From Bryobacteraceae bacterium (lineage in GTDB: Bacteria; Acidobacteriota; Terriglobia; Bryobacterales; Bryobacteraceae), in the NCBI GenBank assembly GCA_049511335.1, contig JBEKYD010000001.1, positions 28,097 to 92,096 of the forward strand: 64,000 nucleotides of DNA, in the 5' to 3' direction. The notes under the pieces were generated by a model. The model made no database searches, was not told the origin of the DNA, and was given only the letters and a program-made list of their open reading frames with translations. How positions within the stretch are numbered: the stretch's first letter is position 1; every line of letters begins with the position of its first letter. This document shows positions 1,770 to 57,904 of the stretch, piece after piece. The position numbers and the translations under genes were made by a program.

Positions 1770-3355
1770 GGAATTACCTGGAACTGTGAGGGTACTATGC
1801 GGTTTCCCAGCGGGTCAACCGTGGTCAATTGCGGCGGTTGGCCCGGGATCTGTTGGACATGCAGCGGCCGGTCGCGGACGGAACACTCCGGCAGCGGTGT
1901 GACGGTATAGTAATTCAGGCCGTAGCGCCAATTGCGATGGATGTTATCGACGCAGACTTGGCCGGCCACGGGGGCAATCCGCTTCCAGATGGGGCGGGCG
2001 GAAGCGATGCGGTCCACTTCCGGAAGAACGGCGATCTTCCAGTCGACGATGTTCAGGGTGACGCCGCCGGCGATCACGAATACCGCGGCCAGCCGCAGAC
2101 CGCGCGAATCCAGAAGCCAGACCAGCCCGGCGGCTAGCACCGGCAGCAACCAGGTCCAACGAAAGGCTGGCACAGGGGCTTTGGAACTTCCCCATGCGAT
2201 GGCTTCGGGCAACATGGGACCGAGGACGGGAAATGCGGCCATGAGCAGGGCGCAGCCGGCCAGCCAGAAGCTGCCAACGGTTCGGCCGGCCGCGGATTCA
2301 TTGAGCGCTACGCCAGCCAAGGCGGCCACCGGAGGCAAAAGCGGCAGGACGTAACCGGGCAGTTTGTTTACCGGGACGGAGAAAAACAGCAGCCCCCAAA
2401 TTGCCCAGGCGAACAGGAAGCGTTGGCGGATGTCCGGCGTTCGAAATCGGGTTGCCGCCAGGGCGGCCAGCGGAGTCCATGGCACCAGAGCCAAGAGCAG
2501 CACGGGGAAGTAATACCAAAAAGGCTGGCTATGCAAGAGAGCGCCGGTGAAGGCGCGCTCCACGTGGTGCTTCCAAAAGAAATCGAGCAAGAAAGCGGCG
2601 CCATTTTTCAGATAGCAGGCGGCGTACCACGGAGCCGTCACCAGGATACACGGCAACAACAGGCGCGCCAGAGCGCGTGGAAAGCGATTGCGAACGCCCA
2701 ACAGGAGGGGCAACGCCAGGGCAACGGGAACCAATCCTTTGGCCAGGATGGCCAGGCCGAACATGGCGCCGGACCAGGGCAGCCACTTTTGATCGCCACG
2801 GCTAACCCACGGAATCGCCAGTAGCATGGCGGCCGCGAAAGTGGCCGACATGGGCAGGTCGGTGACTCCGACCTGGCTGTACAGCAACCATTCGCCCGAA
2901 GTAGCCAGAATCAAGGCGGCAAAGGCCGCGGCACGCCATCCGAATTCGCGCCGCAAAATCCAATAGAAGAAAAGCAGGAAGGCGACGGAGAGGAGGGCCA
3001 CGGGCAGGCGCGGCGCCAGGTCCGGGCCGGCGCCAAAACGAAACGCCAGGGCGGCCATCCAATAGTAGAGCGCCGGTTTTTCAAACCACGGCTCGCCCCA
3101 CAAGCGAGGGGTCACGAGGTCGCCGGTATCGGCCATGGCGCGCGCCACCGAGGCGTATCGCGGTTCGTCGGGCAGAATGACGCCCATGGCCGTGAGGCGA
3201 TAGCAATACGCGAAATAGAGGAGCGGTAGAGCTAACCACACCAGCCAGCGGGCGGGCGAAAGTGGGGACCGTGCGCCGCCGGTTTGGACATCGAAGGGGT
3301 TATCGGGGCAACTTGGGACAGTGCCCGAGTTCCCCCACGGGCTCCTAGCCCGCAT
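1766..3355 (-). CDS. GT-C fold glycosyltransferase, ArnT/PMT-like (GT39/GT83 family)
   Basis: 529-aa polytopic ORF. The first periplasmic loop motif DEPRYASVARAMADTGDLVTPRLWGEPWFEKPALYYW is typical of ArnT/dolichyl-phosphate-mannose mannosyltransferase-like enzymes. The exact start is uncertain. Confidence 0.85.
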   Translation of the reverse strand: MRARSPWGNSGTVPSCPDNPFDVQTGGARSPLSPARWLVWLALPLLYFAYCYRLTAMGVILPDEPRYASVARAMADTGDLVTPRLWGEPWFEKPALYYWMAALAFRFGAGPDLAPRLPVALLSVAFLLFFYWILRREFGWRAAAFAALILATSGEWLLYSQVGVTDLPMSATFAAAMLLAIPWVSRGDQKWLPWSGAMFGLAILAKGLVPVALALPLLLGVRNRFPRALARLLLPCILVTAPWYAACYLKNGAAFLLDFFWKHHVERAFTGALLHSQPFWYYFPVLLLALVPWTPLAALAATRFRTPDIRQRFLFAWAIWGLLFFSVPVNKLPGYVLPLLPPVAALAGVALNESAAGRTVGSFWLAGCALLMAAFPVLGPMLPEAIAWGSSKAPVPAFRWTWLLPVLAAGLVWLLDSRGLRLAAVFVIAGGVTLNIVDWKIAVLPEVDRIASARPIWKRIAPVAGQVCVDNIHRNWRYGLNYYTVTPLPECSVRDRPLHVQQIPGQPPQLTTVDPLGNRIVPSQFQVIP

Positions 3356-3472: not shown

Positions 3473-4435
3473 ATGTTGCGATGGTTGCGGTTGGGGGCAT
3501 GTGTTTGGCTGCTGGCGCTGGCTGCCAGCGGGGAGGATTCCAAGAAGTCGGCGCTGGACAAACTGACGCTGGAGGCGTACGTCCGCCATTTGTACGTGCT
3601 GGACAAGCTTGTCACGGTGACGGTCGGGGACCCGAAGCCGGCCTCGCTGCCTGGATTCGTGGAAGAGACCGTGCATGCAGCGCTGGGAAACCAGTCGCAG
3701 GACTTCACGTTTTACATCAGCCAGGACGGCAAACATGTCATTCAGGGGAACGTCTACGACATCAACGCCAATCCCTTCAAGGCCGATCTGGACAAGGTCA
3801 AAACGACAGGCGCGCCGGGCTGGGGCACTTCCGGAGCGCCGGTGGTAGTGGTGGAATTCAGCGACTTCGAGTGCCCTTATTGCAAGGAGGAAGCCCTGCA
3901 GATTCGCGACCACCTGCTGGCAACCTACCCGACGCAGGTGAAACTTTACTTTAAAGAATTTCCGCTCGAGAGCTTGCATCCCTGGGCGAAAACCGCGGCC
4001 ATGGCCGGGCGCTGCGTTTTCGCACAAAACAACGACGCGTTTTGGGCCTACCACGATTGGGTCTTCTCGCACCAGGAACAGATCACGCCGGACAATGTGC
4101 GCGCGCAGATTATGGACTGGGCAAAAGGCCGGAAGGAGCTGGACGCGCTGAAGCTGGGACAGTGCATCGATACCAAGGCGACCGAGGCGGAGGTCGACGC
4201 CATCGAGGCGCAGGGGCGGGATTTAGGGATCAACGCCACCCCGACGCTGTTCATCAACGGCCGGCGCCTGACGCAAGCCCTGGAATGGAGCGGCTTGAAA
4301 AGCATCATCGACTACGAGATCGAATATCAGAAGACGGCCAAGGACGCGGGCGACAATTGCGGTTGCGATCTCAAACTCAAGCTGCCGGGCGCGCCGGCGC
4401 AGACCAAACCGGGCCTATCCGGCATCAAGCATTAA
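3473..4435 (+). CDS. DsbA-family thioredoxin-fold thiol:disulfide oxidoreductase (secreted)
   Basis: N-terminal signal peptide (MLRWLRLGACVWLLALAASG). CxxC active site in VVVVEFSDFECPYCKEEA. Downstream TPTLFINGRR is the cis-Pro loop region typical of DsbA-like proteins. Confidence 0.85.
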   Translation: MLRWLRLGACVWLLALAASGEDSKKSALDKLTLEAYVRHLYVLDKLVTVTVGDPKPASLPGFVEETVHAALGNQSQDFTFYISQDGKHVIQGNVYDINANPFKADLDKVKTTGAPGWGTSGAPVVVVEFSDFECPYCKEEALQIRDHLLATYPTQVKLYFKEFPLESLHPWAKTAAMAGRCVFAQNNDAFWAYHDWVFSHQEQITPDNVRAQIMDWAKGRKELDALKLGQCIDTKATEAEVDAIEAQGRDLGINATPTLFINGRRLTQALEWSGLKSIIDYEIEYQKTAKDAGDNCGCDLKLKLPGAPAQTKPGLSGIKH

Positions 4436-4787: not shown

Positions 4788-5762
4788 TTAATTGGGACGG
4801 AACGAACTTACATCCACACTCATGCCGTCGGACCAGGTGAGGGGGGATTCGGCGCGGGCGGCTTTTACCTGCGCTTCGATGGAGCGCGCTTCGGCTTTGT
4901 GACCGGTGCGCCGCAAGAAGAGCGCGTAATCGGCGAGCACCGCGAGATAGGCGGGGTGCGAGGGCCCGAGGTGGCCCAAGGAATCGAGCGCCTGGCGGAA
5001 TAGAGAACCTGCGTTCTCGCGCCGGCCGGCGATGAAATCCATGCTGGCCAGGTTGTGGTACGCGCGTCCCAACATCGGATGATACGGCGCCGTATCGTGC
5101 CGCAAGAGTTCGACGGAGCGCTCCAGCATTTGGCGCGCTTCCACATCGCGCTGCTGCCGATGGCGGATGACGGCCAAGTTGTTGAGCACGACAGCGGTCA
5201 TCTCTTGGGTGGGCTGGCGCTCGAAAACCGCGAGCGCCTGGTTCAGCGCGGCCTCGGCTTCCTGGTAACGGTGCTGCCCAATCAGAATCTCGGCGAGAAA
5301 GTTGTGCGCGCCGGCCAGGCGTTCGTTATCGGCCGGGAAGAAACGCTCCTGCCGCGTGAGGGAATCGCGCACCAAGGTTTCGGCTTCGTGAAATCTGCCG
5401 CGCAGCCCCAACACGGTGGCCAGATGAGCTTCGATGACCGCATAGTCGGCGTTGTCCTTGCCGATAGCGGTTTGGACCTCGCCGAGCGCTGCCCGGAATT
5501 GAAATTCGGCGTCATCGAGGTGCGACAGTGCCTCGCTGGTGGACGCCAGCGCATCGCGCGTCACCCAGCAGCGCGGGTCGCGCGGCCCGAATGTCTCGGC
5601 CGCCGCGAGCGCCTGGCGAAGCGTCTGGGCGGCTTCGACGTAATCGGCATGGCTCAATTGTCCGCGGACGACCGCCATCTGCCGTTCCCACTGTTCGGCC
5701 CCCTGCTCCGCTCCAAATGCACTATTCATCAAACACAGACACACTACGACCCCGTATCGCAC
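4788..5762 (-). CDS. secreted tetratricopeptide-repeat (TPR) protein
   Basis: GTG start at 5762 preceded by AAGGAGAG. Signal peptide MRYGVVVCLCLMNSAFGAEQ. Repeated A-x-x-x-Y/L...A TPR-like helices run throughout (for example HNLASMDFIAGRRENAGSLFRQAL). Confidence 0.85.
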   Translation of the reverse strand: MRYGVVVCLCLMNSAFGAEQGAEQWERQMAVVRGQLSHADYVEAAQTLRQALAAAETFGPRDPRCWVTRDALASTSEALSHLDDAEFQFRAALGEVQTAIGKDNADYAVIEAHLATVLGLRGRFHEAETLVRDSLTRQERFFPADNERLAGAHNFLAEILIGQHRYQEAEAALNQALAVFERQPTQEMTAVVLNNLAVIRHRQQRDVEARQMLERSVELLRHDTAPYHPMLGRAYHNLASMDFIAGRRENAGSLFRQALDSLGHLGPSHPAYLAVLADYALFLRRTGHKAEARSIEAQVKAARAESPLTWSDGMSVDVSSFRPN

Positions 5763-6190
5763 AGTCTCTCCTTTTTTGGACGGCGCCGCTTACCCAAGAG
5801 CGGGCGTCCGATGGACAAGGCCCCCGTCCGGCCAGGCAACTCAACCGCTAGAAGACAGCATCGCGACTCACGACAGAGACGATCGTACCAGCGGCCGCAG
5901 CGCCGAAACCATCCGAATCCTGCTGCCAATGTTAGACGCGACGCTGGGGATTCGGTCCCGGCTCTAGCCTGACGTAACGGACGTAGCACATGGAGACGCG
6001 GCCCTATCGGCCGGCGAATGCTCGAATATCCGGCGGCCAGCGCCGCATAGCAGACGGCGATTGTACACGCGACCGCCGTTGCCCCCAAGTTGGCCGCCAC
6101 GATCAGGCCGGCGCCGGCCAGCAATCCTCCGAACCCGATGAATCCGAGTGTCAACCGTCGCGCCAGCGTGTGGTATGGCTGCTCCGACAT
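5744..6190 (-). CDS. hypothetical protein; only the N-terminal ~60 aa look like a 2-TM peptide
   Basis: ATG at 6190 with GGAGA 9 nt upstream. The N-terminus LTLGFIGFGGLLAGAGLIVAANLGATAVACTIAVCYAALAAG is membrane-like. The C-terminal 90 aa are Arg-rich, look non-coding and run over the RBS of the TPR gene. Confidence 0.3.
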   Translation of the reverse strand: MSEQPYHTLARRLTLGFIGFGGLLAGAGLIVAANLGATAVACTIAVCYAALAAGYSSIRRPIGPRLHVLRPLRQARAGTESPASRLTLAAGFGWFRRCGRWYDRLCRESRCCLLAVELPGRTGALSIGRPLLGKRRRPKKERLCDTGS

Positions 6191-6283: not shown

Positions 6284-8812
6284 CTACGACTCCCAGCAGT
6301 TCGAGATAGAGTGGTTCCACCGATCGAAGACCTCTTCGTCGGTGAGCGGCGCCAGATAGTTCCACACGCGGCCGCGGGCGATCTTCCAACGCATGGCGGC
6401 GCCGAGAAAGCACGCGCCAACCGGCTCGGGCGCACGCGCAATTTCTTCCATCACGCGATCGAGCGATCCCGCCGTGGTGAAGTTGCGCAACTGGAACAGC
6501 AGGCGGTTCCGCCGGACGATGTTTTCGACGGTTTCCGCCGCATAGTGCCGTCCGATGGTGGCGCGCTGCGTATGGTAGGCGATCGATCCGGGCGAATACC
6601 ACGAGTCGTAGCCCAGCTTTCGCGCGCGCCAACCCCATTCCACGTCCTCCCAGTAGAACGGGTCGTAAGCCGCGGCATCGAGGAACTTTCTCAGCAGTTC
6701 GGTTCGAAACAGCGACGCGCCGCCGCCGGCGTAGAAGGTCGGAACCGGGTTGCCGGATTTCGGAATCCAGTCGTGAATGGTAGCCAGGCCGGACTCTATC
6801 AATAGCGTGGTCCAGTTGGTTTCGTCGCGGAAGCGCGTCGCGTCTTTGAGAATCACCTGCGAGGCCACCGAGAACGTTTCCTCCGCGCGGCCGGCTGCCA
6901 GCTCGCCGAGCGCAGCAGGTTCCAGGATGACGTCGCTGTTCAGCAGGTACACCCAGTCGTAACGCACGCGCGCGAGGCCGGCGCGAACGGCGCCTGCGAA
7001 GCCCAGGGGCCGGTCATAGAAACGCCAGCGAACGCCGGGGTGCTCCCTGCACAGATGCTCGTAGCCGGAGCGCGGCGAACCGTTCACCACCACGATCGCT
7101 TCCAGCGGCTCGCGCCACTCGAAAGCGGCCGCGCGCACGCTCGCCAGGCAGGCGGTCAGCTCTTCCACGTTGTCCCATTCCGGAATCAGAATTGAAAGGC
7201 CCGGCTTCCATCGGCCGCCGAAGGGTGGCCTGAGCCGGCGGCGGTAGCGGCGTTGCAACCGCATCCCCCAACGGTCGATCGCATGCACGAAACGGTCTAG
7301 CGGCTCAAGCGCCGCCCGCCGCGCGGCGGTGCGTTCCGGGTCGACAAACTCTTTCGACACCAGAAGCGCCAGGGCGAATCCAAGGTCGCGCCGGTCGGTG
7401 CCCACTCCGCGTTCCGAAGGCCGGTAGACATGCGCGGTACGAAACTCGAGCATCCAGGGCGCCGGCTGGTCCGCGTCCACCGCGAAATCCAGCCCGAACG
7501 GCATGATTCCCTCCCAAGGGTTCGTCACTCGTCCGATTTCGTATCCGTTCAGGCGGATCGAAAGCCGGTTCGGATGGTTCGCGGGCCCGGATGGCAGCAT
7601 CCCGGAGACGTGCAACGTGCGCGAGCCCGGACGCGGTTCTAATATTGCCGCGGCCTGCTGGCTGCTCCAAATGTGTTCTTCGTCCGACGGCTCATGCCAG
7701 CCGTAGAGCAGTTGAGCGTTGAGGCCCCTCGCCGCAACGATCTCACTGGCACGCGGGCCGGGGCGGTAGGCTCGCTTCCACGGGCACGTGCGGCATTCCG
7801 GGACTTCCCCGCGCCGGTATCGCTCGCGGAAGCGCCGGTACGCTTCGCCGTGCCAGATCTCACCGATCGGCTGCTCCGCCAGGTTGCCCAACGGATGTTT
7901 GTCCAGCACCTCGCAAGCCACCACGTCGCCATTCGACAATACGTGCGCCGTCTCCCACGGGTTCTGCTCGCAGGAATAGATAAGCGCGCCCTGGGGCAGT
8001 TCCCACGGGTACGGAACCGGAACTTCGCCCAGCAGGCGGCCGCCGGCCGTCGACAATTCGTTCGAGATCGTGATGCGGATCTCCGGGTGGGTTCGCTCCG
8101 TCTCCGTCACCATGGCTCGCAAGCGGCTTTCAAACTCCGGCCGGTGCGTGCCGCCCGGCGTCAACTCAACATGGAAGGGTGCCGGAATCTCGTCGCGCCG
8201 CATCACCGGAAAGATCATGATTTCATGCAGCGCCAGTCGATCCGCGAGCGCAGCAACCGAACGAAGCTCGGCCAGGTTCGTGTCCATGGCGACGAACGCG
8301 AAATCGACGACTGGCGATGGCGGCGCCGCCCGGCACAATTCCAGGAAACTCACGAGGCGCGAGCGCAGCGTGGCGAACGAACTGTAACGATAGACTTCCG
8401 CAAACTTTTCGGGATCGGTGGCGTGCACGGAGACGGTGAGCCGGTCGAGCCCGCTCCGGCTCAAGGGGCCCAGAAGAGGCTCCGGCGCGCTGGCCATCGC
8501 GGTGACCAGCTCCACATACGCTCCGGCAGCCCGTGCCCGCTCGATGGCCGGGATCAACTCGGGGTAGACCGTGGATTCGCCCGAGTAGTTCAGCACGAAC
8601 TTGCGCGGATCCACCAGCGCGCCCACCAGCGCATCGAACACCGCGAATGGCAGGTGGACGCCCGCGCCGCGCCGCATTTTGCGGGAACAGAAGATGCAGT
8701 CGAAGGGGCACTTCGACGTCAACTCCACCCACAGAGTGCGGGGCGTACGCGCGGCTAGAAACTCCGGAGGGCCCCCTTGTCTCTCTGTATCAGAGTCCAA
8801 ACGCGGCCGCAT
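6284..8812 (-). CDS. radical SAM / SPASM(twitch)-like domain fused to a family-2 glycosyltransferase
   Basis: 842 aa.
- CX3CX2C cluster motif CPFDCIFC at aa 35-42 (nt 8687-8710).
- Cys-rich auxiliary region SCEQNPW...VVACEVLD...GEIWHG...PECRTCPWK (nt ~7770-7980).
- A GWHEPSDEEHIWSS-type linker domain.
- A GT2-like half from LSILIPEWDNVEE...VVVNGS...NSDV (nt ~6400-7200). Confidence 0.9.
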   Translation of the reverse strand: MRPRLDSDTERQGGPPEFLAARTPRTLWVELTSKCPFDCIFCSRKMRRGAGVHLPFAVFDALVGALVDPRKFVLNYSGESTVYPELIPAIERARAAGAYVELVTAMASAPEPLLGPLSRSGLDRLTVSVHATDPEKFAEVYRYSSFATLRSRLVSFLELCRAAPPSPVVDFAFVAMDTNLAELRSVAALADRLALHEIMIFPVMRRDEIPAPFHVELTPGGTHRPEFESRLRAMVTETERTHPEIRITISNELSTAGGRLLGEVPVPYPWELPQGALIYSCEQNPWETAHVLSNGDVVACEVLDKHPLGNLAEQPIGEIWHGEAYRRFRERYRRGEVPECRTCPWKRAYRPGPRASEIVAARGLNAQLLYGWHEPSDEEHIWSSQQAAAILEPRPGSRTLHVSGMLPSGPANHPNRLSIRLNGYEIGRVTNPWEGIMPFGLDFAVDADQPAPWMLEFRTAHVYRPSERGVGTDRRDLGFALALLVSKEFVDPERTAARRAALEPLDRFVHAIDRWGMRLQRRYRRRLRPPFGGRWKPGLSILIPEWDNVEELTACLASVRAAAFEWREPLEAIVVVNGSPRSGYEHLCREHPGVRWRFYDRPLGFAGAVRAGLARVRYDWVYLLNSDVILEPAALGELAAGRAEETFSVASQVILKDATRFRDETNWTTLLIESGLATIHDWIPKSGNPVPTFYAGGGASLFRTELLRKFLDAAAYDPFYWEDVEWGWRARKLGYDSWYSPGSIAYHTQRATIGRHYAAETVENIVRRNRLLFQLRNFTTAGSLDRVMEEIARAPEPVGACFLGAAMRWKIARGRVWNYLAPLTDEEVFDRWNHSISNCWES

Positions 8813-9311
8813 ATTTCACCTTGCCGCGAATCTGATCGAGAGGCCCGGGGCGGAGCTCCATCGCCATGAATGCTTCGGGAGGAAACGGGCTTTCGAGAGA
8901 CCGTGCCTTCTCGGTGGAGAAGCCAAAGCGCGGGTAGTAATCGGGATGGCCGACAACGATGACGATGTGCTCACCCTGCCTCCGCAACCGATCCAGGCCA
9001 TAGCCAATCAGCCGTCCGCCGATCCCCTGACGCTGGTGCTCGGGCAATACGGCCATCGGAGCCAACGCCACCGCCGGGACCGATCCGCCGCTTGTTTCAA
9101 TCGACATCCGGCTGAACAGGATGTGCCCAACGATGCGGTTCTCCAGCTCGGCAACGATCGATGCAAGCACGACGCCTTCGGCGCGCAAGTTATCGACCAG
9201 GTCGGCTTCGTCCATGCGGCCAAATGCCGCTTGGTTGACCGAGTGGACCGCCGATCGCTCCTGAGTTTCGGTGCTCTCGTGACGGATAGTCAGATTGCTT
9301 TCCGGATGCAC
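8790..9311 (-). CDS. GNAT-family N-acetyltransferase
   Basis: 173 aa. Acetyl-CoA binding motif QRQGIGGRLIGYGLDRL. The stop overlaps the radical-SAM start by 23 nt. Confidence 0.85.
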   Translation of the reverse strand: MHPESNLTIRHESTETQERSAVHSVNQAAFGRMDEADLVDNLRAEGVVLASIVAELENRIVGHILFSRMSIETSGGSVPAVALAPMAVLPEHQRQGIGGRLIGYGLDRLRRQGEHIVIVVGHPDYYPRFGFSTEKARSLESPFPPEAFMAMELRPGPLDQIRGKVKYAAAFGL

Positions 9312-9349: not shown

Positions 9350-10513
9350 TCACACGCGCAAATACCAGCCCTTCCGGTGCATCGCGTACGCGACCAGATA
9401 CATGGCTCCCGTAAACACCAAGGAGTACAACAGCGACGCAATCGCAGGCGAGGCCAGCGGCGCGAAGAGCGTGCGATAGAGATAATGCTGCAGCGAGATG
9501 TGGCCGGACGCCGCGTTCCATCGGATGCTCGAGATCGCTTCGGCAGAGAACTCCGCCGCCATGTACACGGCAATCGCATTCATTCCCAGGATCACCAGCG
9601 GTCTCACGGGTTTGTGCCAGCCCAGGCCGTCCACCAGCCAGGCGAACATGGCGAAGACCACGAAATCGAGGCCCGCCATGAAGAGACAGAAGGAATCCGT
9701 CCAGAGTTTCTTATTGATAGGCAGCCAATAACTGCAGATGGCGCCGGCGGCGAGCAGAAGGTTGCCGGCCAGGAAGAGCCAGGTCATGCGCTCGGGCAGC
9801 GACCGGCGCAGCCGCAGCAGGTGGCCGGCCAGCACGCCAAACAGTGTGGTGGCAATGGCCGGAAGGGTGCTGACGATGCCTTCCGGGTCCCAGGTCTTAG
9901 TCTCTCGATAGTTATGGCTGCCCAGGACCATGCGGTCGATGTAGTGGGCGAAATTGCCGTCCTCGTCGAGGCGGCCGGGGCCGAATCCCGGCGCCGGAAC
10001 CAGCGTCATCAACATCCAATAGGCGGCCAGCAGGCCGATCAGCCAACAGATTTGAGCGCGCAGACCGGTGTACAGAAACAGGATCGATACCACCAGGTAA
10101 CAGATGGCGATCCGCTGCAGCACACCCAAGATTCGTTGCGTGCCCAGGTCGAAGAGAGGCGGCGCGTAAACGGCCAGCCCGAAGGCAAACAAGATGGCGG
10201 CGCGGCGGAAGATCTGCGGCAACAGGCGCGCGCGGGGAATGCCTTCGGCCAGGCGCTTGCCCAGAGAAAGGGTGATGGCGACGCCGACAATCCACAAAAA
10301 CGTGGGGAACACCGTATCGGTGAGCGTCCAACCGTTCCACTGCGAGTGGCGCAACTGCGTATACGCGTCCCGCTCGCTGCCGTTGTTATTGACAAGCACC
10401 ATGAGCGCCATGGTGAGGCCGCGGAAGGCATCGAGCGAAAGCAGCCGCCGCGGCGTGGAAGCGGGGGTCTCGAGGACCGGTTCGAGGGACGGTGCGACGG
10501 AGGTCGGGGTCAT
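9350..10513 (-). CDS. HGSNAT-like membrane acyltransferase (DUF1624/DUF5009, heparan-alpha-glucosaminide N-acetyltransferase family)
   Basis: Start re-set to the ATG at 10513 (MTPTSVAPS...), which overlaps the ogt stop as ATGA. Family signature LLSLDAFRGLTMALMVLVNNNGS...HSQWNGWTLTDTVFPTFLW followed by about 10 TM helices. The 129 codons upstream in the ORF track are Arg-rich and antisense-like. Confidence 0.8.
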   Translation of the reverse strand: MTPTSVAPSLEPVLETPASTPRRLLSLDAFRGLTMALMVLVNNNGSERDAYTQLRHSQWNGWTLTDTVFPTFLWIVGVAITLSLGKRLAEGIPRARLLPQIFRRAAILFAFGLAVYAPPLFDLGTQRILGVLQRIAICYLVVSILFLYTGLRAQICWLIGLLAAYWMLMTLVPAPGFGPGRLDEDGNFAHYIDRMVLGSHNYRETKTWDPEGIVSTLPAIATTLFGVLAGHLLRLRRSLPERMTWLFLAGNLLLAAGAICSYWLPINKKLWTDSFCLFMAGLDFVVFAMFAWLVDGLGWHKPVRPLVILGMNAIAVYMAAEFSAEAISSIRWNAASGHISLQHYLYRTLFAPLASPAIASLLYSLVFTGAMYLVAYAMHRKGWYLRV

Positions 10514-11046
10514 GCGCTTTCCTCTCCTGTAAAGGGTAACGCGCCGCCGCGTTCGTGATCGAGGAGCCAGCGTTTGCGGGCCAGGCCGCCGCCGTAGCCG
10601 GTAAGCGCGCCATTGGCGCCGATGACGCGATGGCAGGGAACCACGATGGCGACGGGGTTGGAACCGTTCGCCAAACCGACGGCGCGGCAGGCACTGGGCC
10701 GTCCGATGCGAGCGGCCAGTTGGCCGTAGGTGGTAGTGGAACCGGCCGGAATCCGGCGCAGCGCGGCCCAGACCTGGCGCTGGAATGGAGTGCCGCCGGC
10801 ATCGACGGGGATGCGGTCGATGGCAGTCACGTCGCCGGCAAAATAGGCTTCGAGCGGTTCGCGGATTTCGGGCGGCGCGGCGGCGGGGACCAGGCGGCAC
10901 GGGCCGTAGTGCCGTTCGAGGGCGCGCTCGAGGCCGTCGTCGCCGTGAAGGTCCAGCATGCGAAGCGCGGCCTGGCCGGCAGTGCCGCTCCAGACCAGGC
11001 GCAGCACGCCGATGGGCGAAGTCATGCGGTCGAGGAACAGGTCCAT
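10510..11046 (-). CDS. ogt: methylated-DNA--protein-cysteine methyltransferase
   Basis: Active-site PCHRVIGANGALTGYGGGL and helix-turn-helix region TYGQLAARIGRPSACRAVGLANGSNP. Start set to the ATG at 11046 (MDLFLDRMTSPIG). Confidence 0.9.
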   Translation of the reverse strand: MDLFLDRMTSPIGVLRLVWSGTAGQAALRMLDLHGDDGLERALERHYGPCRLVPAAAPPEIREPLEAYFAGDVTAIDRIPVDAGGTPFQRQVWAALRRIPAGSTTTYGQLAARIGRPSACRAVGLANGSNPVAIVVPCHRVIGANGALTGYGGGLARKRWLLDHERGGALPFTGEESA

Positions 11047-11105
11047 GGGTACACTCAGGGTACTGCTTTGGGGCCTGCTAGGGATGGCCGGCGTGCGGGA
11101 AACGA

Positions 11106-11303
11106 TCAGGCTGCGCCGGCAAGCATCTTGGGGAGGCAACAATCGGTGAATTTCCTACCGCTGCCGCAGGGGCACGCCTCACTGAAGCCGGCGAAATCGG
11201 CGGCGTTGTGCATTCTTGTGCGATTAGGCGGCATTTGTGCGCCTACCGGGGCGGGTTTAGCGGCAGTGCGACGTTGTTTCCGTTCGAACGGGATGGGTGG
11301 CAT
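11106..11303 (-). CDS. small SEC-C motif (SecA C-terminal-like zinc-binding) protein
   Basis: 65-aa ORF ending in CPCGSGRKFTDCC, the classical SEC-C metal-binding motif. Confidence 0.6.
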   Translation of the reverse strand: MPPIPFERKQRRTAAKPAPVGAQMPPNRTRMHNAADFAGFSEACPCGSGRKFTDCCLPKMLAGAA

Positions 11304-11379
11304 CGCTTGCTCAGAGCCAGAAAAAGCTCTTCAAAACCGATACATGTTATAGTGTCGCATCAGGAGGAACGCTGAACTT

Positions 11380-11790
11380 ATGCCGCGCGCGATTCCAATT
11401 CTCGCCGGCCTGCTCCTCTGCACTCTTGGCTTGAGCCCGATGGCTTGCCACCGTAGTAGCGATACAGAGCTGGAGACGTTGGATTACGCCAAGAGCACGA
11501 TCAGCCTGGATGGCCCGGCTACTGCGCGGACCACCGGCGGCCACAAGATTGAAGTGGAGGGGCCGGCGACCAACCACGACAAGTTTCAGCACGACGTCTA
11601 TTTCACGGCCACGCTTTGGGATGCTGGCGGCAACGCCGTGGGCACGGCCACCGGCAAGCTGGAGGATTGGCCGGCAGGGCATCGCGGTCTCTACAAGCTT
11701 GCGGGCACAGCGAAGTCTGCCGAGTGGGCGCGCGTAACGGTGGTGGTCTCCAACGTGAAGGAACATGTGAGGGGCCAGGCTGAGGATTAG
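11380..11790 (+). CDS. putative lipoprotein, unknown function
   Basis: 136 aa. Signal peptide with a lipobox-like LSPMAC. First gene of a tightly packed four-gene plus-strand operon. Confidence 0.6.
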   Translation: MPRAIPILAGLLLCTLGLSPMACHRSSDTELETLDYAKSTISLDGPATARTTGGHKIEVEGPATNHDKFQHDVYFTATLWDAGGNAVGTATGKLEDWPAGHRGLYKLAGTAKSAEWARVTVVVSNVKEHVRGQAED

Positions 11791-11796
11791 GCCCGG

Positions 11797-12354
11797 ATGC
11801 CTGTGCCAGGACCAAGCAGAGTCATCCGAGCCCAAGTGATGGCCGCGGCTTTGCTGTACATTGTTCTGGCGCGGTCTGCGGCGGCCACGGGCAACTACGT
11901 CCTGACGGCGGAGCTTCCGGCGACGCTCCGCAAAGGTGCGCCGGCCACTCTGCTTCTCCACGTTCACAGTGGAGCGCAGCCGGTGGACCACCTGGCCGCC
12001 TGCCTGGCCACTGCGCCACTTTTCATCAGCATGGAAGATGCCCTGGATACCACTCCCGCTAATGGCATCGATCTCGGGGCCGGCCCCGAGTCCGGCCTTC
12101 AGCCGGCCTGCAGCATGGCCATCGCGGGTGTCCCGAGCGGGCCCGGCACCTATGCCTTTACGTGGGAGCCGGACACAGCCGGCAGGGTGAACCTGAAGTT
12201 CACCGCCGGAGCCAGCGCCATCACCGTGCCCGCCGACGTTGACAGCGCACCCCCCAGTCCCGTGATCCTCGCCGTCTTCGTGGTCTTCGTCGCGCTGGTT
12301 TTCAGCATAGCCGCTTACGTGCGCCGCCGGTGGCCGGAAGCGGCGGCCCCATGA
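11797..12354 (+). CDS. secreted protein with C-terminal TM anchor, unknown function
   Basis: 185 aa. N-terminal signal/anchor (AAALLYIVLARSAAATG) and C-terminal helix PVILAVFVVFVALVFSIAAYV. The stop overlaps the next start as ATGA (12351-12354). Confidence 0.6.
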   Translation: MPVPGPSRVIRAQVMAAALLYIVLARSAAATGNYVLTAELPATLRKGAPATLLLHVHSGAQPVDHLAACLATAPLFISMEDALDTTPANGIDLGAGPESGLQPACSMAIAGVPSGPGTYAFTWEPDTAGRVNLKFTAGASAITVPADVDSAPPSPVILAVFVVFVALVFSIAAYVRRRWPEAAAP

Positions 12355-13463
12355 ATCTATTGAGCATTCCGTGGATCAGGGCCGCGCTGCGCAGCCGTTT
12401 CTACCCCACGGCTTTTCAATGGACCACGGCAGCGGCGTTCGTTCTGGTTCTCTGGGCGGCGCTCTTCGGAACGAACAACGCCGGTCAGAATTTCGGGATG
12501 GCATTGGCCTGGACCGTCTGGTGGCCGCTGCTGCCGCTCTCTTTCGTTTTCGTCGGACGCTTCTGGTGCGCTGTTTGCCCCCTGGCTTGGCTTTCCGACC
12601 AGGTCCAGCGTGCAGTGGGAGTGCGGCTCTCCGCTCCGCGCGTCCTCGTGCGGTATGGCCCGTGGATCATAGCCGCGCTGTTCATCATGATCACCTACCC
12701 CGACCAGACGTGGCAATTCGACGATGACGCGCGTAAGACTGGCTATCTGCTGCTGGCGTTGCTTTCCGTGGTGATCTTCTTCGGGGCGTTTTTTGAGCGG
12801 CGGACGTTTTGCCGGTATGCCTGTTTCGTCGGGGCATTTGCCTCCAATTACAGCCGGGCCGGCGTGGTGGAACTCCGCGCCGAGCCGGGGCGCTGCCGTC
12901 ATTGCCGTACCTCCGACTGCAGCCGCGGAACGGCCTCGATGCAGGGCTGCCCGGTCTTCCTTTTCGCTCCGGCCGTTGAGGACTCCGGTACGTGCCATCT
13001 TTGCGGGAACTGCGTAAAGAACTGCCCGCACGACGCGATCCGCATTTCGCCCCGCCTTCCCACGGCGGAGTTGTGGAACGTCCGCCAGCCACGGCTGCCC
13101 GATGTCGCCCTGGTGATGATCGTGATGGGCATGGTCCTGATCGAGCGCGCCACAGCGCTCCGTCTGTGGAATCCGCTGGTGGAGCAGACGGGTACGCTAC
13201 TGCATTTAGATTCCTATGCGTCGTATCCCCTAATCCACGGATTTCTCCTCACGATGTTTATGTTGGCGCCGCTAGCAGGCTTAGTGGTCGCCAGCCTCCT
13301 CTCGGAAGCGCTGCACGACAAGGTAAGCCTCGCGAAGGTATTCCAGAACTCCATGACCTTCGGTTACGCCATGATTCCGCTGGCCCTTGCCAGCCACGTC
13401 GCACTCGTCTCGATCGCCTGTTGGAATGGTCCCGAAGCATTCCCTTTGCCTTCCTGGCGATGA
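12351..13463 (+). CDS. polytopic 4Fe-4S ferredoxin-type membrane protein (FixG/CcoG / NapH-like)
   Basis: Cys motifs CAVCP, CRYAC, CRHCRTSDC and the canonical CHLCGNCVKNCPHDAI, embedded between TM helices. Start set to the ATG at 12351 (MNLLSIPW) because of the ATGA overlap. Confidence 0.8.
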   Translation: MNLLSIPWIRAALRSRFYPTAFQWTTAAAFVLVLWAALFGTNNAGQNFGMALAWTVWWPLLPLSFVFVGRFWCAVCPLAWLSDQVQRAVGVRLSAPRVLVRYGPWIIAALFIMITYPDQTWQFDDDARKTGYLLLALLSVVIFFGAFFERRTFCRYACFVGAFASNYSRAGVVELRAEPGRCRHCRTSDCSRGTASMQGCPVFLFAPAVEDSGTCHLCGNCVKNCPHDAIRISPRLPTAELWNVRQPRLPDVALVMIVMGMVLIERATALRLWNPLVEQTGTLLHLDSYASYPLIHGFLLTMFMLAPLAGLVVASLLSEALHDKVSLAKVFQNSMTFGYAMIPLALASHVALVSIACWNGPEAFPLPSWR

Positions 13464-49154: not shown

Positions 49155-50087
49155 ATGCTGGAAGCGAAGGCGCTCAAAAAGGCGTTTGGCAGTGTCAAGG
49201 CCGTGGACGGTGTCAGCCTGCGCGCAGCCAGAGGCGAGACCGTCGGCCTGCTCGGCCCAAATGGCGCCGGCAAAACCACCACCGTTTCCATTGTCGCCGG
49301 CTTGCTCAGGCCGGATTCCGGCGAGGTGCTCATCGAAGGCCGGCCGCTCGGCGGCGATACCGACCCGCTCAAGCGCCAGATCGGCCTGGTGCCGCAGGAT
49401 GTCGCCCTCTACGACGAACTCTCGGCCATGCAGAATCTCGCGCTATTCGGCGCCCTCTACGGTCTCGGCGGTGCGCGGCTGAAGCGCGCCACCGCCGAAG
49501 CGCTGGACCTCGCCGGCCTCGCCGACCGCGCCAAAGACAAAGTCGCCATCTTCAGCGGCGGCATGAAACGACGGCTGAACATCGTCGCGGCCATGCTGCA
49601 CGATCCGGCGATTATCCTGCTCGACGAGCCCACCGTGGGCGTCGACCCGCAGAGCCGCAACGCCATCTTCGAAAATCTGGAGATCTTCAAGAAGCGCGGC
49701 AAAACGTTGATCTATACCACCCACTACATGGAAGAGGCCGAGCGCGTCTGCGACCGGCTCATTATTATCGATCACGGCAAGGTAGTCGCCGACGACACGC
49801 TACGCGGTTTGTATCGCCTGGTGCCGGCGACGAACCTGCTAAATGTTGAGCTGGATAGAGACATCGATGGCGCGGCGCTGGAAGATCTCCGGCATCTCCC
49901 GGAAGTGAAATCTGCCAAAATGGGCGGCGGTGTGCTCAAAGTCGGAGTACCCGATCTGTCGGCCGGCGCGCCGCGCATCCTCGCCTGGCTGGCGGAGGGC
50001 GGCCATTCCTTTCACCATATTTCTAGCGAGAGGGCGGACCTCGAAACCGTATTTCTCACGCTCACCGGCAGAAAGCTGCGAGACTGA
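49155..50087 (+). CDS. ABC transporter ATP-binding protein (ABC-2/DrrA-like exporter subunit)
   Basis: Walker A GPNGAGKTT, signature FSGGMKRRL, Walker B IILLDEPTVGVD, H-loop TTHYMEEA. Confidence 0.9.
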   Translation: MLEAKALKKAFGSVKAVDGVSLRAARGETVGLLGPNGAGKTTTVSIVAGLLRPDSGEVLIEGRPLGGDTDPLKRQIGLVPQDVALYDELSAMQNLALFGALYGLGGARLKRATAEALDLAGLADRAKDKVAIFSGGMKRRLNIVAAMLHDPAIILLDEPTVGVDPQSRNAIFENLEIFKKRGKTLIYTTHYMEEAERVCDRLIIIDHGKVVADDTLRGLYRLVPATNLLNVELDRDIDGAALEDLRHLPEVKSAKMGGGVLKVGVPDLSAGAPRILAWLAEGGHSFHHISSERADLETVFLTLTGRKLRD

Positions 50088-55300: not shown

Positions 55301-57904
55301 TCAGAAACGCAAATCGGGCACCGCTCGTGGAATCCGCCGCGGAGGCGCGGCCGAAACCTTTACCGCGTGCGGGGCGGTTTCGAGTTGGGCCATGGCTTGG
55401 TAACTGCGTTCCGCCTCGGCGGCGATGGCGGTCCATGAAAATCGCCGCTCCACGGTGCGGCGGCCCGCGGCGCCCATGCGTTCGCGTAGGGCAGGGGAGG
55501 CCAGCACCACGCCTAGCGCGGCGGCGAACCTGGCGTTTCCATCCCGAATCAAAGCTTCCCGTCCGTCGGTCAGCCCCAACCCGGCCGAACCCACCGGCGT
55601 GGTGACGATGGCCTTGCCGCAGGCCATGGCTTCCAGCACCTTGATGTTCGTCCCAGCCGAAACCGCCAGCGGAATCGCCACTGCCGTGGCTCGCGCATAC
55701 AGTGGACGCAAATCGGAAACGAAACCCTGAACCTCAATCCGGCCGTCGAGCTCACCCAACGTTTCCGTCCTCCCAAAGCACTTCCAAAAACTCTCGTGCT
55801 CCGGGCCGGCCACCACCCGCAAGCGCGCTTCCGGGAAGCGCTGCCAAACCAGAGGCATCACTTCACGCCGCAGGTTTTCGAAACCCAGAATGTTGGGCAG
55901 GTGGCGGAAAGAACCCACGTAGAGGATCTCCGGCGCGGCGTCCCGACCCGAAGTCGCTTGCTCTGCGCACGGCACGAAACGTTCGATATCCACGCCGTTG
56001 GGAATTGCGAACACGCCGGATGGATTGGCGCCTTCGGCGATAGCGGCCTGGCGGTCGTCGTCGGATACCGTCCAGACGCCGTCCAAGGTCCGCAGCCACC
56101 GGCTTTCGTATGCCCGCCACCGTTCGTATTCGCGGCGGGCTTCCTCGCCAGGTTGGCTTTCGAGCAATTGGCGATAAAGCTGGAAGGTGATGTCGTGCTC
56201 CACCAGCAGCGCCGGCACGCGGGGAGCCGCGCTGCGGAAGTGGGCCAAGTGGGTGTATTCGATCTGCAGCAGGTCGGGCTGAAAGGTGTCCGCCAGGTGG
56301 CCGATCAGGGCCCGCAGGCTGCTCGACTGGTGGTGCCGGACTTGGCTCGGCAGGCTGCGGTCCCCGGAAGCCCTCTCGTCCATGTCCACCACGTACACTT
56401 GCCGGAAGATTTCGTTCAGTTTCGGGTAGTCGACGAACTCGCCCTTCTCGCGGATGGCAGCCAGCGCAAAATCCACGCGTCCGGAGAGTTCGCGGCAAAG
56501 ATTGAAAATCCGTACCGCGCCGCCGTGGGCCAACGGGTAGGGCAGGAACGGCGTCACCAGCAGCACCTTGGGACGGCCATCGCGCGATCGCGCGCTGCGC
56601 GGCCAGCCGCATGCCGTGGCAATCGTGCCGCCCGTCAAGCCGGCATCGCGCGGACCCAGCCGCCGCAACTGGCGGCTGGCCAGAATGCGCGCGGCGCAGG
56701 CGGTTTCCTCCATCGGAAGATCCGGCTGCTCGCTCGAACCGCCATCGTGACCGACACTATAAGAAGACCAGCCAGCCGCGGCCGCCTTCCAGAACAACGT
56801 CAACCAGGTGGTTCCCGCAAGACCGCAGCGCGGAATGCCGAGTGCCAGCAGTTTCTGCCGATCCACCAGCATCGTGCGCGCCAGCGGCGCCAGCACGCGC
56901 GAGCTTTCGCCCGGCTGCAGTGTCCGGAACGGCGCCATCGGCAGCAGGGAAGGTTTCCAGCCGCGATGGTGGGTCTGCAAGGCAACCGCAAACGTGCGCC
57001 GGTCCGCAAACAGCGGCAGCATGCGATCGCAGTCTGGCGGTGCCTCCGCATCCTGCTCCCCATCCTGCTCCCCGTCCTGCCGCCAGAGCAGCCAGCGCGC
57101 CTTCGACGCGCGCACGAACTCCTCGAACTGGGCGCCGTTCCAATCCTCCGGGACCTCGAAAACGTCAATGCCTTCGCCCGATTCCGGATCGTTGCCTTGC
57201 CCAACTTTGACCCGCAACGCGCCGCGCCCATCCAACAGCCGCAAAAGGGCGCGCTGCGGATAGCCGCATCGTTTCAGCGCCGATGCAGCCGCCCGCAGCG
57301 CAGCCGCGCCGGCCACGTCCCTGATGCGCGTCGCCCGCGGCGAGCGCCAGGCATGTACCGTGGCCAGATCCCAATAATCCAAAACACGCTGCCAGCCCGA
57401 ATCGAGCGCCTCTCGCAGGCGATGCCACATCGAGCGCACACGCTGCCAGCCCAAATCGAGCGCCTCTCGCAAGCGATGCCGCATGTAGCGCGCGATCCCC
57501 GCCAGCGTAGCGGGAAAGAAATCTCCATTCCGGTTCAGAAGCACGCCCCGGAACGGCGGCACCACCAAAGGAGCCAGCTTCAAAGACCATTGCCCGCCCG
57601 CGCCGTTCCAAGCGCCAGCACTCAGAGCCACCCAGCGGCCCCGCAATTGGCGCTGCGCTTCCACCAACAGCGCCATCGAGCCGCGCTCCACAAACACCCG
57701 TTCGCACAGCGCGCAGGTCTCGCCGGTCGGGACTGCGGTGGTGAACAGCCAGATGGGAATCCCCCCCGTTCCCCGCCGGACGTGTTGCACCAACGAATCG
57801 CAGCTCGCCGTATCGGCCCCGAAAACGGCAACCACTCTCCGATCGCCTTTACCGGTCAACCTGACGAGCCTCTTCAGCCCGCTTTTCGCCCGAGAGATAA
57901 CCAC
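55301..57904 (-). CDS. large multidomain glycosyltransferase; C-terminal GT-B (GT1/GT4) domain, N-terminal ~440 aa unassigned
   Basis: 867 aa with a GTG start. C-terminal half: KVLLVTPFLPYPLAHGGAVRIFNL ... GTNIKVLEAMACGKAIVTTPVG (E-x7-E-like region). The N-terminal half contains an in-frame 54-bp tandem duplication. Confidence 0.85.
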   Translation of the reverse strand: MVISRAKSGLKRLVRLTGKGDRRVVAVFGADTASCDSLVQHVRRGTGGIPIWLFTTAVPTGETCALCERVFVERGSMALLVEAQRQLRGRWVALSAGAWNGAGGQWSLKLAPLVVPPFRGVLLNRNGDFFPATLAGIARYMRHRLREALDLGWQRVRSMWHRLREALDSGWQRVLDYWDLATVHAWRSPRATRIRDVAGAAALRAAASALKRCGYPQRALLRLLDGRGALRVKVGQGNDPESGEGIDVFEVPEDWNGAQFEEFVRASKARWLLWRQDGEQDGEQDAEAPPDCDRMLPLFADRRTFAVALQTHHRGWKPSLLPMAPFRTLQPGESSRVLAPLARTMLVDRQKLLALGIPRCGLAGTTWLTLFWKAAAAGWSSYSVGHDGGSSEQPDLPMEETACAARILASRQLRRLGPRDAGLTGGTIATACGWPRSARSRDGRPKVLLVTPFLPYPLAHGGAVRIFNLCRELSGRVDFALAAIREKGEFVDYPKLNEIFRQVYVVDMDERASGDRSLPSQVRHHQSSSLRALIGHLADTFQPDLLQIEYTHLAHFRSAAPRVPALLVEHDITFQLYRQLLESQPGEEARREYERWRAYESRWLRTLDGVWTVSDDDRQAAIAEGANPSGVFAIPNGVDIERFVPCAEQATSGRDAAPEILYVGSFRHLPNILGFENLRREVMPLVWQRFPEARLRVVAGPEHESFWKCFGRTETLGELDGRIEVQGFVSDLRPLYARATAVAIPLAVSAGTNIKVLEAMACGKAIVTTPVGSAGLGLTDGREALIRDGNARFAAALGVVLASPALRERMGAAGRRTVERRFSWTAIAAEAERSYQAMAQLETAPHAVKVSAAPPRRIPRAVPDLRF
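57384..57487. repeat. 54-bp tandem duplication (2 copies) inside the GT1 CDS
   Basis: ACACGCTGCCAGCCCGAATCGAGCGCCTCTCGCAGGCGATGCCACAT and ACACGCTGCCAGCCCAAATCGAGCGCCTCTCGCAAGCGATGCCGCAT, offset by 54 bp. They encode MRHRLREALDLGWQRV / MWHRLREALDSGWQRV. Confidence 0.8.

Follow-up and report, generated by a model that had tools for sequence, protein, structure and literature searches.

A radical SAM-twitch enzyme fused to a family-2 glycosyltransferase in Bryobacteraceae and their relatives, a putative bifunctional carbohydrate enzyme

To our knowledge, radical S-adenosylmethionine (SAM) enzymes that act on carbohydrates are few, almost all of them known from antibiotic pathways (BtrN, DesII, BlsE and their relatives), and we know of none that is built into a glycosyltransferase. 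BtrN, the founding 'twitch' radical SAM enzyme, oxidises an aminocyclitol, i.e. a sugar-like polyol and not a peptide, and DesII and BlsE abstract hydrogen from a nucleotide- or nucleoside-linked sugar. On the glycosyltransferase side, the mycobacterial galactofuranosyltransferase 2 (GlfT2) is a cytoplasmic, membrane-peripheral, polymerising enzyme of GT-A fold, with a beta-domain, the GT-A domain and a C-terminal helical domain. Radical SAM, family-2 glycosyltransferase (GT2) and methyltransferase classes co-operate in mycofactocin synthesis, which uses the radical SAM/SPASM enzyme MftC, the GT2 MftF and the methyltransferase MftM (PMC9679996). For calditol synthase, Cds, an order has been described in which a glycosyltransferase attaches the sugar and a radical SAM enzyme then acts on it (PMC13459092), and the mycobacterial polymethylated (methylmannose) polysaccharide (MMP) cluster groups ManT, MeT1, pMeT3 and MmpH, with no obvious exporter (PMC9883506). 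Here, we analysed a stretch of 64,000 nucleotides from a Bryobacteraceae bacterium (Acidobacteriota; assembly GCA_049511335.1, contig JBEKYD010000001.1, positions 28,097 to 92,096; hereafter the window), in which one gene (6284..8812, minus strand, with its stop codon at 6284-6286) codes for an 842-residue protein combining a radical SAM core and twitch domain, a beta-sandwich and a GT2.

We propose, with a probability of roughly 55%, that this protein is a soluble cytoplasmic bifunctional carbohydrate enzyme, which couples radical chemistry on a sugar to sugar transfer in the assembly of a glycan, often a methylated one. An earlier note on this DNA, based on its letters alone, had suggested that radical chemistry, coupled to transfer, acts on a sugar or glycoconjugate and not on a peptide; profile hidden Markov model matches, the conservation of the fusion, its fusion and fission pattern, the carbohydrate-related neighbours and the fold matches to sugar enzymes support that suggestion. 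The note was also aware of no characterised enzyme with this architecture, and our full-text literature searches found no published description of a radical SAM-glycosyltransferase fusion. The papers on peptide mining in Bacteroidales and on conflict systems that we considered do not concern the fusion protein.

The frame of the gene is uninterrupted over 842 codons, and its product has four Pfam domains, all above the curated cut-offs. These are Radical_SAM (PF04055; residues 30-163, 46.0 bits for a cut-off of 29.5), SPASM (PF13186; residues 281-344, 58.0 bits for 21.5), Glycos_transf_2 (PF00535; residues 540-655, 46.4 bits for 23.3) and Glyco_tranf_2_3 (PF13641; residues 537-752, 40.4 bits for 27). 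Thus, the profile check proposed earlier for the radical SAM, SPASM and GT2 parts gave matches above threshold for each of them, and the claim of a single polypeptide carrying both activities agrees with the open frame, with the Pfam matches in both halves and with the same architecture in at least 120 relatives. In contrast, every NCBIfam match of the protein is far below its curated cut-off; hence, no curated name can be transferred to it. The full-length AlphaFold2 model (mean predicted local distance difference test score, pLDDT, 86; predicted template modelling score 0.80) is confident across the junction between the two halves. As the note had advised, we parsed it into domains, which resolved a radical SAM barrel (residues 26-250), an auxiliary-cluster domain (277-350), a beta-sandwich (357-487), two long helices (492-523), a GT-A domain (539-747) and a helical C-terminal domain (753-840). 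No convincing transmembrane segment is predicted in the protein.

The radical SAM core (residues 26-250; 8063..8737; this and all other features of the gene are on the minus strand) is a partial triosephosphate isomerase barrel. Its CX3CX2C motif, CPFDCIFC (C35, C39 and C42; 8687..8710), lies exactly where the note had placed it and harbours the predicted ligands of the SAM-cleaving [4Fe-4S] cluster. These three cysteines are invariant in 28 out of 28 aligned relatives and 95% conserved in 42 diverse representatives drawn from 50%-identity clusters. The segment N75-Y76-S77-G78-E79-S80 is invariant in the 28-sequence alignment, and among the diverse representatives G78, E79 and S80 each reach at least 95% conservation; we take S77-G78-E79-S80 (8573..8584) to occupy the position of the 'GGE' SAM-binding motif. 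Since the protein has no B12 (cobalamin)-binding Pfam domain, cobalamin-dependent C-methylation was set aside, and C-methylation is the least likely of the reactions that the note had listed.

The auxiliary domain (residues 277-350; 7763..7984) contains four cysteines, C281 (7970-7972), C300 (7913-7915), C340 (7793-7795) and C343 (7784-7786), which are 100% conserved in both the 28 close relatives and the 42 representatives. Beyond these four and the three cysteines of the core, neither sequence set has any further conserved cysteine column. The seven-cysteine signature of SPASM domains reads CX9-15GX4C ... CX2CX5CX3C ... C. The G295-X4-C300 element is present in the fusion protein, but C343 is followed by PWKRAYRPGP, devoid of cysteines, and the CX5CX3C part is absent. 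We therefore rejected a full SPASM domain for the whole family. SPASM domains bind two auxiliary clusters (as quoted in PMC13459092), whereas with only four conserved auxiliary cysteines the fusion protein can bind a single one, as BtrN does. The conservation pattern thus identifies the domain as a one-cluster twitch of BtrN type, predicted to be fully Cys-ligated. The note had described a SPASM- or twitch-like Cys-rich region ending in PECRTCPWK: the motif is indeed present (residues 338-346) and an auxiliary domain exists, as the PF13186 match indicates, but only the twitch half of that description applies. On the practical side, a Pfam SPASM match alone does not imply a peptide maturase.

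BtrN itself (2-deoxy-scyllo-inosamine dehydrogenase of butirosin biosynthesis; PDB 4M7S/4M7T) is the best PDB match of the family profile, with an E-value of 1.8e-8. BtrN has, and the fusion protein is predicted to have, one auxiliary [4Fe-4S] site made of a C-X(17-18)-C pair and a C-X2-C pair. In the pairwise alignment, residues 187 and 235 of BtrN pair with C300 and C343, with CRTC over the CKNC of BtrN; these are positions of auxiliary-cluster ligands in that enzyme. The likeness is confined to the auxiliary domain of ~60 residues, and the cores barely align. BtrN also differs in being a stand-alone enzyme of 250 residues from an aminoglycoside cluster, with neither a beta-sandwich nor a glycosyltransferase.

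Foldseek searches of the PDB with the AlphaFold2 model gave, for its radical SAM half, E-values of 1e-11 to 1e-13 for DesII, BlsE, SkfB and SuiB. The best structural matches are DesII (TDP-4-amino-4,6-dideoxyglucose deaminase/dehydrogenase, PDB 8HZV; E 6e-13) and BlsE (cytosylglucuronate decarboxylase, PDB 7VOB; E 7e-11, template modelling (TM) score 0.67 on the target), and BlsE is also a weak sequence match to the window protein. Sequence identities are 14-18%, and neither enzyme is fused to a glycosyltransferase. Judged by the model, the radical SAM half resembles enzymes of sugar nucleotides and sugar nucleosides at least as much as it does peptide maturases.

The C-terminal half harbours a GT2 domain of GT-A fold (residues 537-752; 6557..7204), supported by both Pfam families and by fold matches, as the note had proposed from LSILIPEWDN (residues 539-548), VVVNGS (574-579) and NSDV (625-628), all three of which are found. 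The motifs of the domain are IPEWD (543-547), VNGS (576-579), NSD (625-627), DETNW (663-667) and WEDVEWGWR (721-729). Across 95 representatives, conservation is at least 90% for residues N625, D627, E664, E722, D723 and H747, and E722-D723 is invariant within WEDVEWGWR, a segment typical of this GT2 subgroup. The domain is followed by an alpha-helical region predicted by AlphaFold2 (residues 753-842; 6287..6556), in which FQLRN (773-777) is invariant in the 28-sequence alignment. Because the radical SAM motifs are invariant and the GT-A residues at least 90% conserved, both catalytic halves look active.

GlfT2 (PDB 9NJ1) is the top Foldseek match of the whole model (E 1.2e-14, 13% identity), over 498 aligned columns, more than the GT-A domain alone could give and in keeping with the three-domain layout of GlfT2. 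The C-terminal helical domain probably falls within this alignment, for which the search reports no residue ranges. Global superposition is poor, with TM scores of 0.22-0.29 and a root-mean-square deviation of 17 Å; furthermore, the metal motif reads N-S-D in the fusion protein, and GlfT2 has no radical SAM partner. Many polypeptide N-acetylgalactosaminyltransferases (ppGalNAc-transferases) are strong fold matches of the GT-A domain, and profile searches of the PDB matched, for the GT2 half, chondroitin synthase, an undecaprenol-PP-glycan beta-1,3-glucosyltransferase (9jma) and a beta-1,3-GlcNAc-transferase (6h1j).

As ppGalNAc-transferases are protein O-glycosyltransferases, the fold matches would also suit a protein maturase joined to a protein glycosyltransferase. 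The radical SAM half would then modify a residue of a target protein, in the manner of the anaerobic sulfatase-maturating enzyme (anSME) or of the predicted tungsten-enzyme maturases, and the GT2 would glycosylate a protein or peptide as SunS does. The core is indeed closest in NCBIfam to the 'maturases' TIGR04317 and TIGR04311, and both anSME and SunS are among the weak PDB profile matches (E ~0.02). These NCBIfam and PDB scores are nevertheless all far below family cut-offs and reflect generic folds; for the anSME equivalog TIGR03942, the window protein scores 19.7 bits against a cut-off of 349. Moreover, anSME has two auxiliary clusters, whereas the fusion protein has ligands for a single one; the family has no conserved neighbour that could be a target gene, and the conserved partners described below are sugar-nucleotide and sugar-methylating enzymes. 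We thus regard a protein maturase as improbable.

Searching 5.8 billion proteins yielded 478 relatives, at least 120 of which have the same domains in one chain, at 54-82% identity. Where named, the latter bear the names of Acidobacteriia, Candidatus Solibacter, Bryobacteraceae or Sulfopaludibacter, and their database names are generic ('glycosyltransferase' or 'SPASM domain-containing protein'). One of them, P0001, comes from an independent ENA contig and is identical to the window protein. When each GTDB species was scanned through one genome, 76 loci were identified, most of them in Bryobacterales, including the cultured Paludibaculum fermentans. The family also comprises a clade with 37-46% identity in metagenome-assembled genomes labelled Verrucomicrobiota, Planctomycetota, Cellvibrionaceae, Rubrivivax, Limnocylindrales, Elarobacter, Spirochaetales, Desulfuromusa and Thermodesulfobacteriota, and its spread at the phylum level includes Chloroflexota, Eremiobacterota and Desulfuromonadota. 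The representative search gave 444 clusters at E < 1e-30, with many stand-alone proteins of each half.

We compared 81 sequences, i.e. 80 fetched loci (numbered L) and the window, by calling and clustering open reading frames (ORFs) and by Pfam scans, which revealed several arrangements of the modules. The radical SAM-twitch-beta-GT2 order in one chain is found in 42 of them. At roughly 16 of the 80 loci the protein is split: a gene for a radical SAM-twitch-beta protein of ~490-525 residues is directly followed by a gene matching the GT2 half, which where scanned (L037 and L072) codes for a protein of 720-745 residues composed of GT2 and a family-4 glycosyltransferase (GT4). The GT2-GT4 gene is nearby on the opposite strand at L064 and L068. 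Triple fusions of radical SAM-twitch, GT2 and GT4, with 1,077-1,227 residues, were confirmed with Pfam in the proteins P0129, P0131, P0135 and P0143, and six loci (L038, L041, L044, L046, L063 and L080) have ORFs of 1,100-1,500 residues, the size class of these triple fusions. P0143 apparently lacks the middle beta-sandwich, its GT2 beginning only ~70 residues after the twitch. Finally, P0130 (828 residues) is permuted, with the GT2 before the radical SAM module. Because the modules occur in adjacent, triple-fused and permuted forms, their repeated joining in different geometries is strong evidence that they act in one pathway.

An artefactual or decayed fusion, i.e. neighbouring genes joined by a sequencing or assembly error, or a protein with one dead half, could be envisaged, given that the two halves are separate genes in other lineages and that the frame is broken in P. 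fermentans. It is highly improbable, and we rejected it for the window: its frame is open, the same single frame recurs in at least 120 independent database proteins and in 42 of the 81 sequences, the same protein has been assembled independently, the catalytic motifs of both halves are invariant and the model is confident across the junction. The missed stop or frameshift that the note had considered is thus not borne out. Regarding P. fermentans T20B24 (L031:9968-12456), the gene is divided into overlapping ORFs (9968-12067 and 11980-12456), which reflects either a sequencing frameshift or a pseudogene; as the only cultured species found, it would be the obvious organism for genetics.

The split forms also help to assign the middle of the protein. 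The beta-sandwich (residues 357-487; 7352..7744), with its GWH, HxW and DxRDLGF motifs and strands predicted with pLDDT values of 87-95 in the full-length model, is always encoded with the radical SAM gene. The break occurs at the two long linker helices (residues 492-523; 7244..7339), and standalone GT2-GT4 proteins begin to match the family profile at positions ~485-520. This pattern places the beta-sandwich in the radical SAM module and not in the GT2, unlike the beta-domain of GlfT2. The note had described a module at residues ~390-540 resembling those found in front of polysaccharide-modifying enzymes: such a module exists, but it sits somewhat N-terminal of that position, as the beta-sandwich followed by the two helices, and travels with the radical SAM enzyme rather than with the glycosyltransferase. 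Searched alone by sequence, the beta-sandwich matches nothing in Pfam or the PDB. Its weak fold matches are mostly carbohydrate-binding (the BcsB CBD, EclA and the carbohydrate-binding modules CBM4 (CBM4-2), CBM6 and CBM36), which is suggestive only of a carbohydrate-binding role.

The first three homologue contexts (L001, L002 and L004) are mutually unlike, and recurrent partners emerged after clustering the ORFs of the 81 loci. Among the 141 ORFs within 2.3 kb in the split clade, we found UDP-N-acetylglucosamine (UDP-GlcNAc) 2-epimerases (11; equivalog-level WecB), SAM methyltransferases (10), aldo-keto reductases (five) and GT-B-like proteins (five). Four others are additional Radical_SAM proteins (best E 7e-23), which gives some loci a second gene of this superfamily. 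For the fused clade, 36 loci have at least 2.5 kb of downstream flank, and a third of these (12/36) carry directly downstream at least two of three genes, coding for a TylF-type O-methyltransferase, a Methyltransf_24 protein and a CmcI/rhamnosyl O-methyltransferase. Nine loci have all three, and the overlap of the TylF gene with the fusion gene covers the latter's stop codon. In five loci (L030, L025, L005, L015 and L053), a protein of 720-870 residues with a GT4 domain is encoded directly upstream of the fusion gene. The methyltransferase trio of the fused clade and the operon of the split clade are reminiscent, in gene-set logic only, of the MMP cluster, a compact set made of a glycosyltransferase, two or three sugar O-methyltransferases and one extra protein. 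The MMP cluster has no radical SAM enzyme, and the window has no adjacent methyltransferases.

The recurrent neighbours are thus carbohydrate enzymes and not genes for peptides that are made on the ribosome and modified after translation (RiPPs), as far as sequence families tell. No transporter or RiPP gene is among the 25 most frequent neighbour families listed for the split clade. No family of intergenic small ORFs (20-90 residues, within 3 kb) is common to more than three of 79 loci, and the few shared ones amount to antisense artefacts of low complexity; we therefore rejected conserved small ORFs as RiPP precursors. This agrees with the note, which had seen no precursor-peptide ORF next to the gene, whose start overlaps an upstream GNAT acetyltransferase gene. 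The fusion protein has no Pfam match to a PqqD-like RiPP recognition element (RRE), and with the SAM-cluster motif beginning at residue 35 the N-terminus is too short to hold one.

These data bear on a mycofactocin-like logic, in which the radical SAM enzyme would make or modify a peptide-derived or small-molecule aglycone, the GT2 would add an oligosaccharide and the methyltransferases would methylate its sugars. The co-operating enzyme classes are those of mycofactocin, and among named families the GT2 half comes closest to MftF, with weak NCBIfam scores of 35.6 bits for the window protein and 39.9 bits for a split-clade GT2-GT4 protein. In addition, the methyltransferase of L072 resembles a RiPP (daptide) methyltransferase (56.8 bits, below the cut-off of 175). 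However, the MftF profile (TIGR03965) has a cut-off of 280, and for MftC (TIGR03962), with its cut-off of 265, a split-clade member reaches 21.9 bits, the profile lying outside the best 25 matches listed for the window protein. MftC is a full SPASM enzyme, whereas the fusion family has a twitch with four auxiliary cysteines only, and its fused or adjacent GT4 and its WecB partners point to the building of a glycan and not to the decoration of an aglycone. The MftA, MftB, MftD and MftE families are found neither among the window neighbours nor among the 25 most frequent neighbour families listed, which also lack PqqD-type and peptidase genes. Together with the lack of a conserved small ORF and of an N-terminal RRE, this makes an aglycone-based pathway doubtful.

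Remodelling of a glycolipid head group, with the GT2 attaching a hexose to a hopanoid, ether lipid or diacylglycerol of the membrane and the radical SAM enzyme rearranging it, e.g. by a ring contraction to a cyclitol of the kind proposed for hopanoids (HpnI/HpnJ) and for archaea (Cds), would account for the pairing of the two activities. Acidobacteriota are known for unusual membrane lipids, GlfT2 acts on a lipid-linked acceptor at the membrane, and a glycosyltransferase followed by a radical SAM enzyme is also the logic proposed for HpnI and HpnJ. Cds follows the same order, a likeness that is one of logic only. Nevertheless, no lipid-biosynthesis gene is among the recurrent neighbours, and the fusion protein has no membrane-spanning or obvious amphipathic segment. 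HpnJ has a cobalamin-binding domain, for which the fusion protein has no Pfam match, and GT4, WecB and several sugar O-methyltransferases would better suit a longer glycan. Such a function appears unlikely.

Returning to the bifunctional carbohydrate enzyme, we infer the following sequence of events. The N-terminal module (residues 26-487) would be a radical SAM enzyme with one auxiliary [4Fe-4S] cluster of BtrN-type twitch, whose beta-sandwich would hold the sugar or glycan substrate. SAM would be reductively cleaved, the 5'-deoxyadenosyl radical would take a hydrogen from a carbon of a sugar residue, and the fully Cys-ligated auxiliary cluster would accept an electron. The outcome would be oxidation of a CH-OH group to a keto group, or epimerisation by return of a hydrogen from the other face, with dehydration or decarboxylation as less likely outcomes. 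By analogy with the known carbohydrate twitch enzymes, keto-sugar dehydrogenation or epimerisation would be the most likely chemistry, and the aldo-keto reductase recurring in five split-clade loci would fit a keto intermediate. The C-terminal module (residues 492-842), as a GlfT2-like GT-A enzyme, would add a sugar, drawn from a nucleotide-sugar donor, to that same glycan or glycoconjugate as it grows, and the two would be consecutive steps of one pathway. In relatives, the pathway would also use a GT4 (fused, adjacent or unlinked), SAM-dependent O-methyltransferases and a UDP-GlcNAc 2-epimerase; given these enzymes, the product is probably a modified, often methylated, oligo- or polysaccharide.

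Several observations weigh against this proposal. The peptide-modifying enzymes SkfB and SuiB have Foldseek scores nearly as good as those of DesII and BlsE, so that the fold match does not settle the substrate class. The best NCBIfam matches of the radical SAM core are protein or cofactor maturases (the tungsten-enzyme maturase TIGR04317, with 77 bits, TIGR04311 and PqqE), far below their cut-offs and over the generic core only. The position of the GT-A metal motif reads N625-S-D627, invariant, and not the canonical D-x-D. The isolated beta-sandwich is modelled with a pLDDT of 68.6, and its Foldseek matches are weak (E ~1e-3, TM score ~0.4). With respect to gene context, two thirds of the fused-clade loci have no recurrent neighbour, and the genes flanking the fusion gene in the window are conserved at none of the other 80 loci, not even beside relatives with 74-77% identity. 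Finally, a polyprenyl-phosphate glycosyltransferase, a flippase and an ABC exporter are not among the 25 most frequent split-clade neighbour families listed.

More tentatively, the fusion protein may be the catalytic core of an unrecognised glycan-synthesis system spread over several phyla, in which a twitch radical SAM enzyme edits residues on the growing polymer and is coupled to a polymerising GT2 (and GT4). The radical step might then be an in-chain epimerisation, oxidation or cross-linking, guided by the putatively carbohydrate-binding beta-sandwich. The product might be a polysaccharide located inside the cell or in the envelope, in many cases polymethylated, and containing a residue that is not available from any nucleotide-sugar pathway. 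If so, radical SAM action on a polysaccharide chain would be shown for the first time, as would a natural radical SAM-glycosyltransferase 'assembly line'.

Immediately upstream of the split-clade radical SAM gene, we found genes for another protein family, of ~340-390 residues, which is absent from the window. Members include L072:7703-8776, L037:4599-5612, L042:227-1282, L043:338-1375, L063:8456-9526, L073:1018-2091, L075:8841-9914 and L077:8877-9962, among others. They share many invariant residues, e.g. D110-W111-R112, H228, Y232, E235-G236, R273 and D275, and are devoid of Pfam matches and of PDB sequence matches at E-values up to 10. Their assignment as UDP-GlcNAc 2-epimerases was discarded, the match having come from two genuine WecB sequences in the first profile.

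Both enzyme classes, as well as radical SAM chemistry on sugars, are known; new are the obligatory way in which the two are coupled, the beta-sandwich that goes with them and how widely the family is distributed. The junction of the radical SAM module with GT2 and GT4 in at least three fusion geometries argues that glycosyl transfer and radical chemistry on sugars are obligatorily coupled. If the proposal is correct, it would introduce a new reaction type into polysaccharide biosynthesis and explain genes currently annotated only as 'glycosyltransferase' or 'SPASM domain-containing protein'. It would also provide a compact five-gene operon, coding for the ~360-residue protein, the radical SAM enzyme, the GT2-GT4 protein, a methyltransferase and WecB, that could be expressed heterologously to find the product.

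We then analysed the surroundings of the fusion gene in the window, which include a probable unlinked partner. A protein of 867 residues encoded 46 kb away (55301..57904, minus strand) has 47.5% identity over 840 residues to the protein whose gene immediately precedes the fusion gene in L030. It comprises an intact GT4 (residues 461-830, matching Pfam GT4 families) and a degenerate GT2-like N-terminal region (residues ~54-360). Comparison of its family with the GT2 region of the fusion by hhalign gave a probability of 97.7% (E 1.6e-12), and in the window copy other residues stand in place of the NSD and WED motifs. Its orthologue lies directly upstream of the fusion gene in both L030 and L025. 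Next to it in the window is a gene for a CBM48/alpha-amylase protein of debranching type (53023-55182).

The ATG of the fusion gene (8812) lies 23 nucleotides inside the 3' end of the GNAT acetyltransferase gene (8790..9311, minus strand; Pfam Acetyltransf_9, _1 and _7). Further upstream, 9350..10900 (minus strand) codes for a multi-pass membrane protein with about 8-10 hydrophobic segments and a domain resembling transmembrane glucosaminide acetyltransferases (HGSNAT_cat, PF07786, 42 bits). That gene ends 38 nucleotides upstream of the GNAT start, and its true start is probably internal, because the 5' part of the ORF overlaps a gene at 10510-11142 in which an MGMT domain was found. Given the 23-nucleotide overlap and the 38-nucleotide gap, the three genes are probably co-transcribed. 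Both acetyltransferase-like genes are specific to the window.

Located 93 nucleotides downstream of the fusion gene, an ORF of 148 codons (5744-6190, minus strand) would code for a protein with a hydrophobic N-terminal segment (residues 13-58) and a tail rich in Arg and Cys. Neither Pfam nor NCBIfam gives a match for it, and the ORF is not conserved beside any relative and may not be a real gene. Three envelope- or glycan-related genes follow between 717 and 4435, coding for a permease-like protein (717-1769; ureide permease/sugar transport Pfam families), a PMT_2 glycosyltransferase (1766-3355; GT-C, ArnT/PMT-like) and, on the opposite strand to these two, a protein with DsbC_N and DsbA-like thioredoxin domains (3473-4435). 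Inferring the function of the fusion protein from its window neighbours (the GNAT, HGSNAT-like, 148-residue, TPR, DsbA-like, PMT_2 and permease proteins) was rejected as weak local context, none of them being conserved, and the functional context was therefore taken from relatives.

Other parts of the window contain an ORF of 1,247 codons (17241-20984, plus strand), whose sole Pfam match is a short patatin-like phospholipase segment (residues 317-376, 28 bits), the greater part of its product having no annotation, and a gene for a protein of 718 residues (46889-49045, plus strand) with a TMTC/DUF1736 segment, similar to protein O-mannosyltransferases, and many TPR repeats. The latter gene adjoins a pair of ABC-2 transporter genes (49155-51373) and a gene (43133-46687, minus strand) for a protein of 1,184 residues with CarboxypepD_reg and outer-membrane beta-barrel domains.

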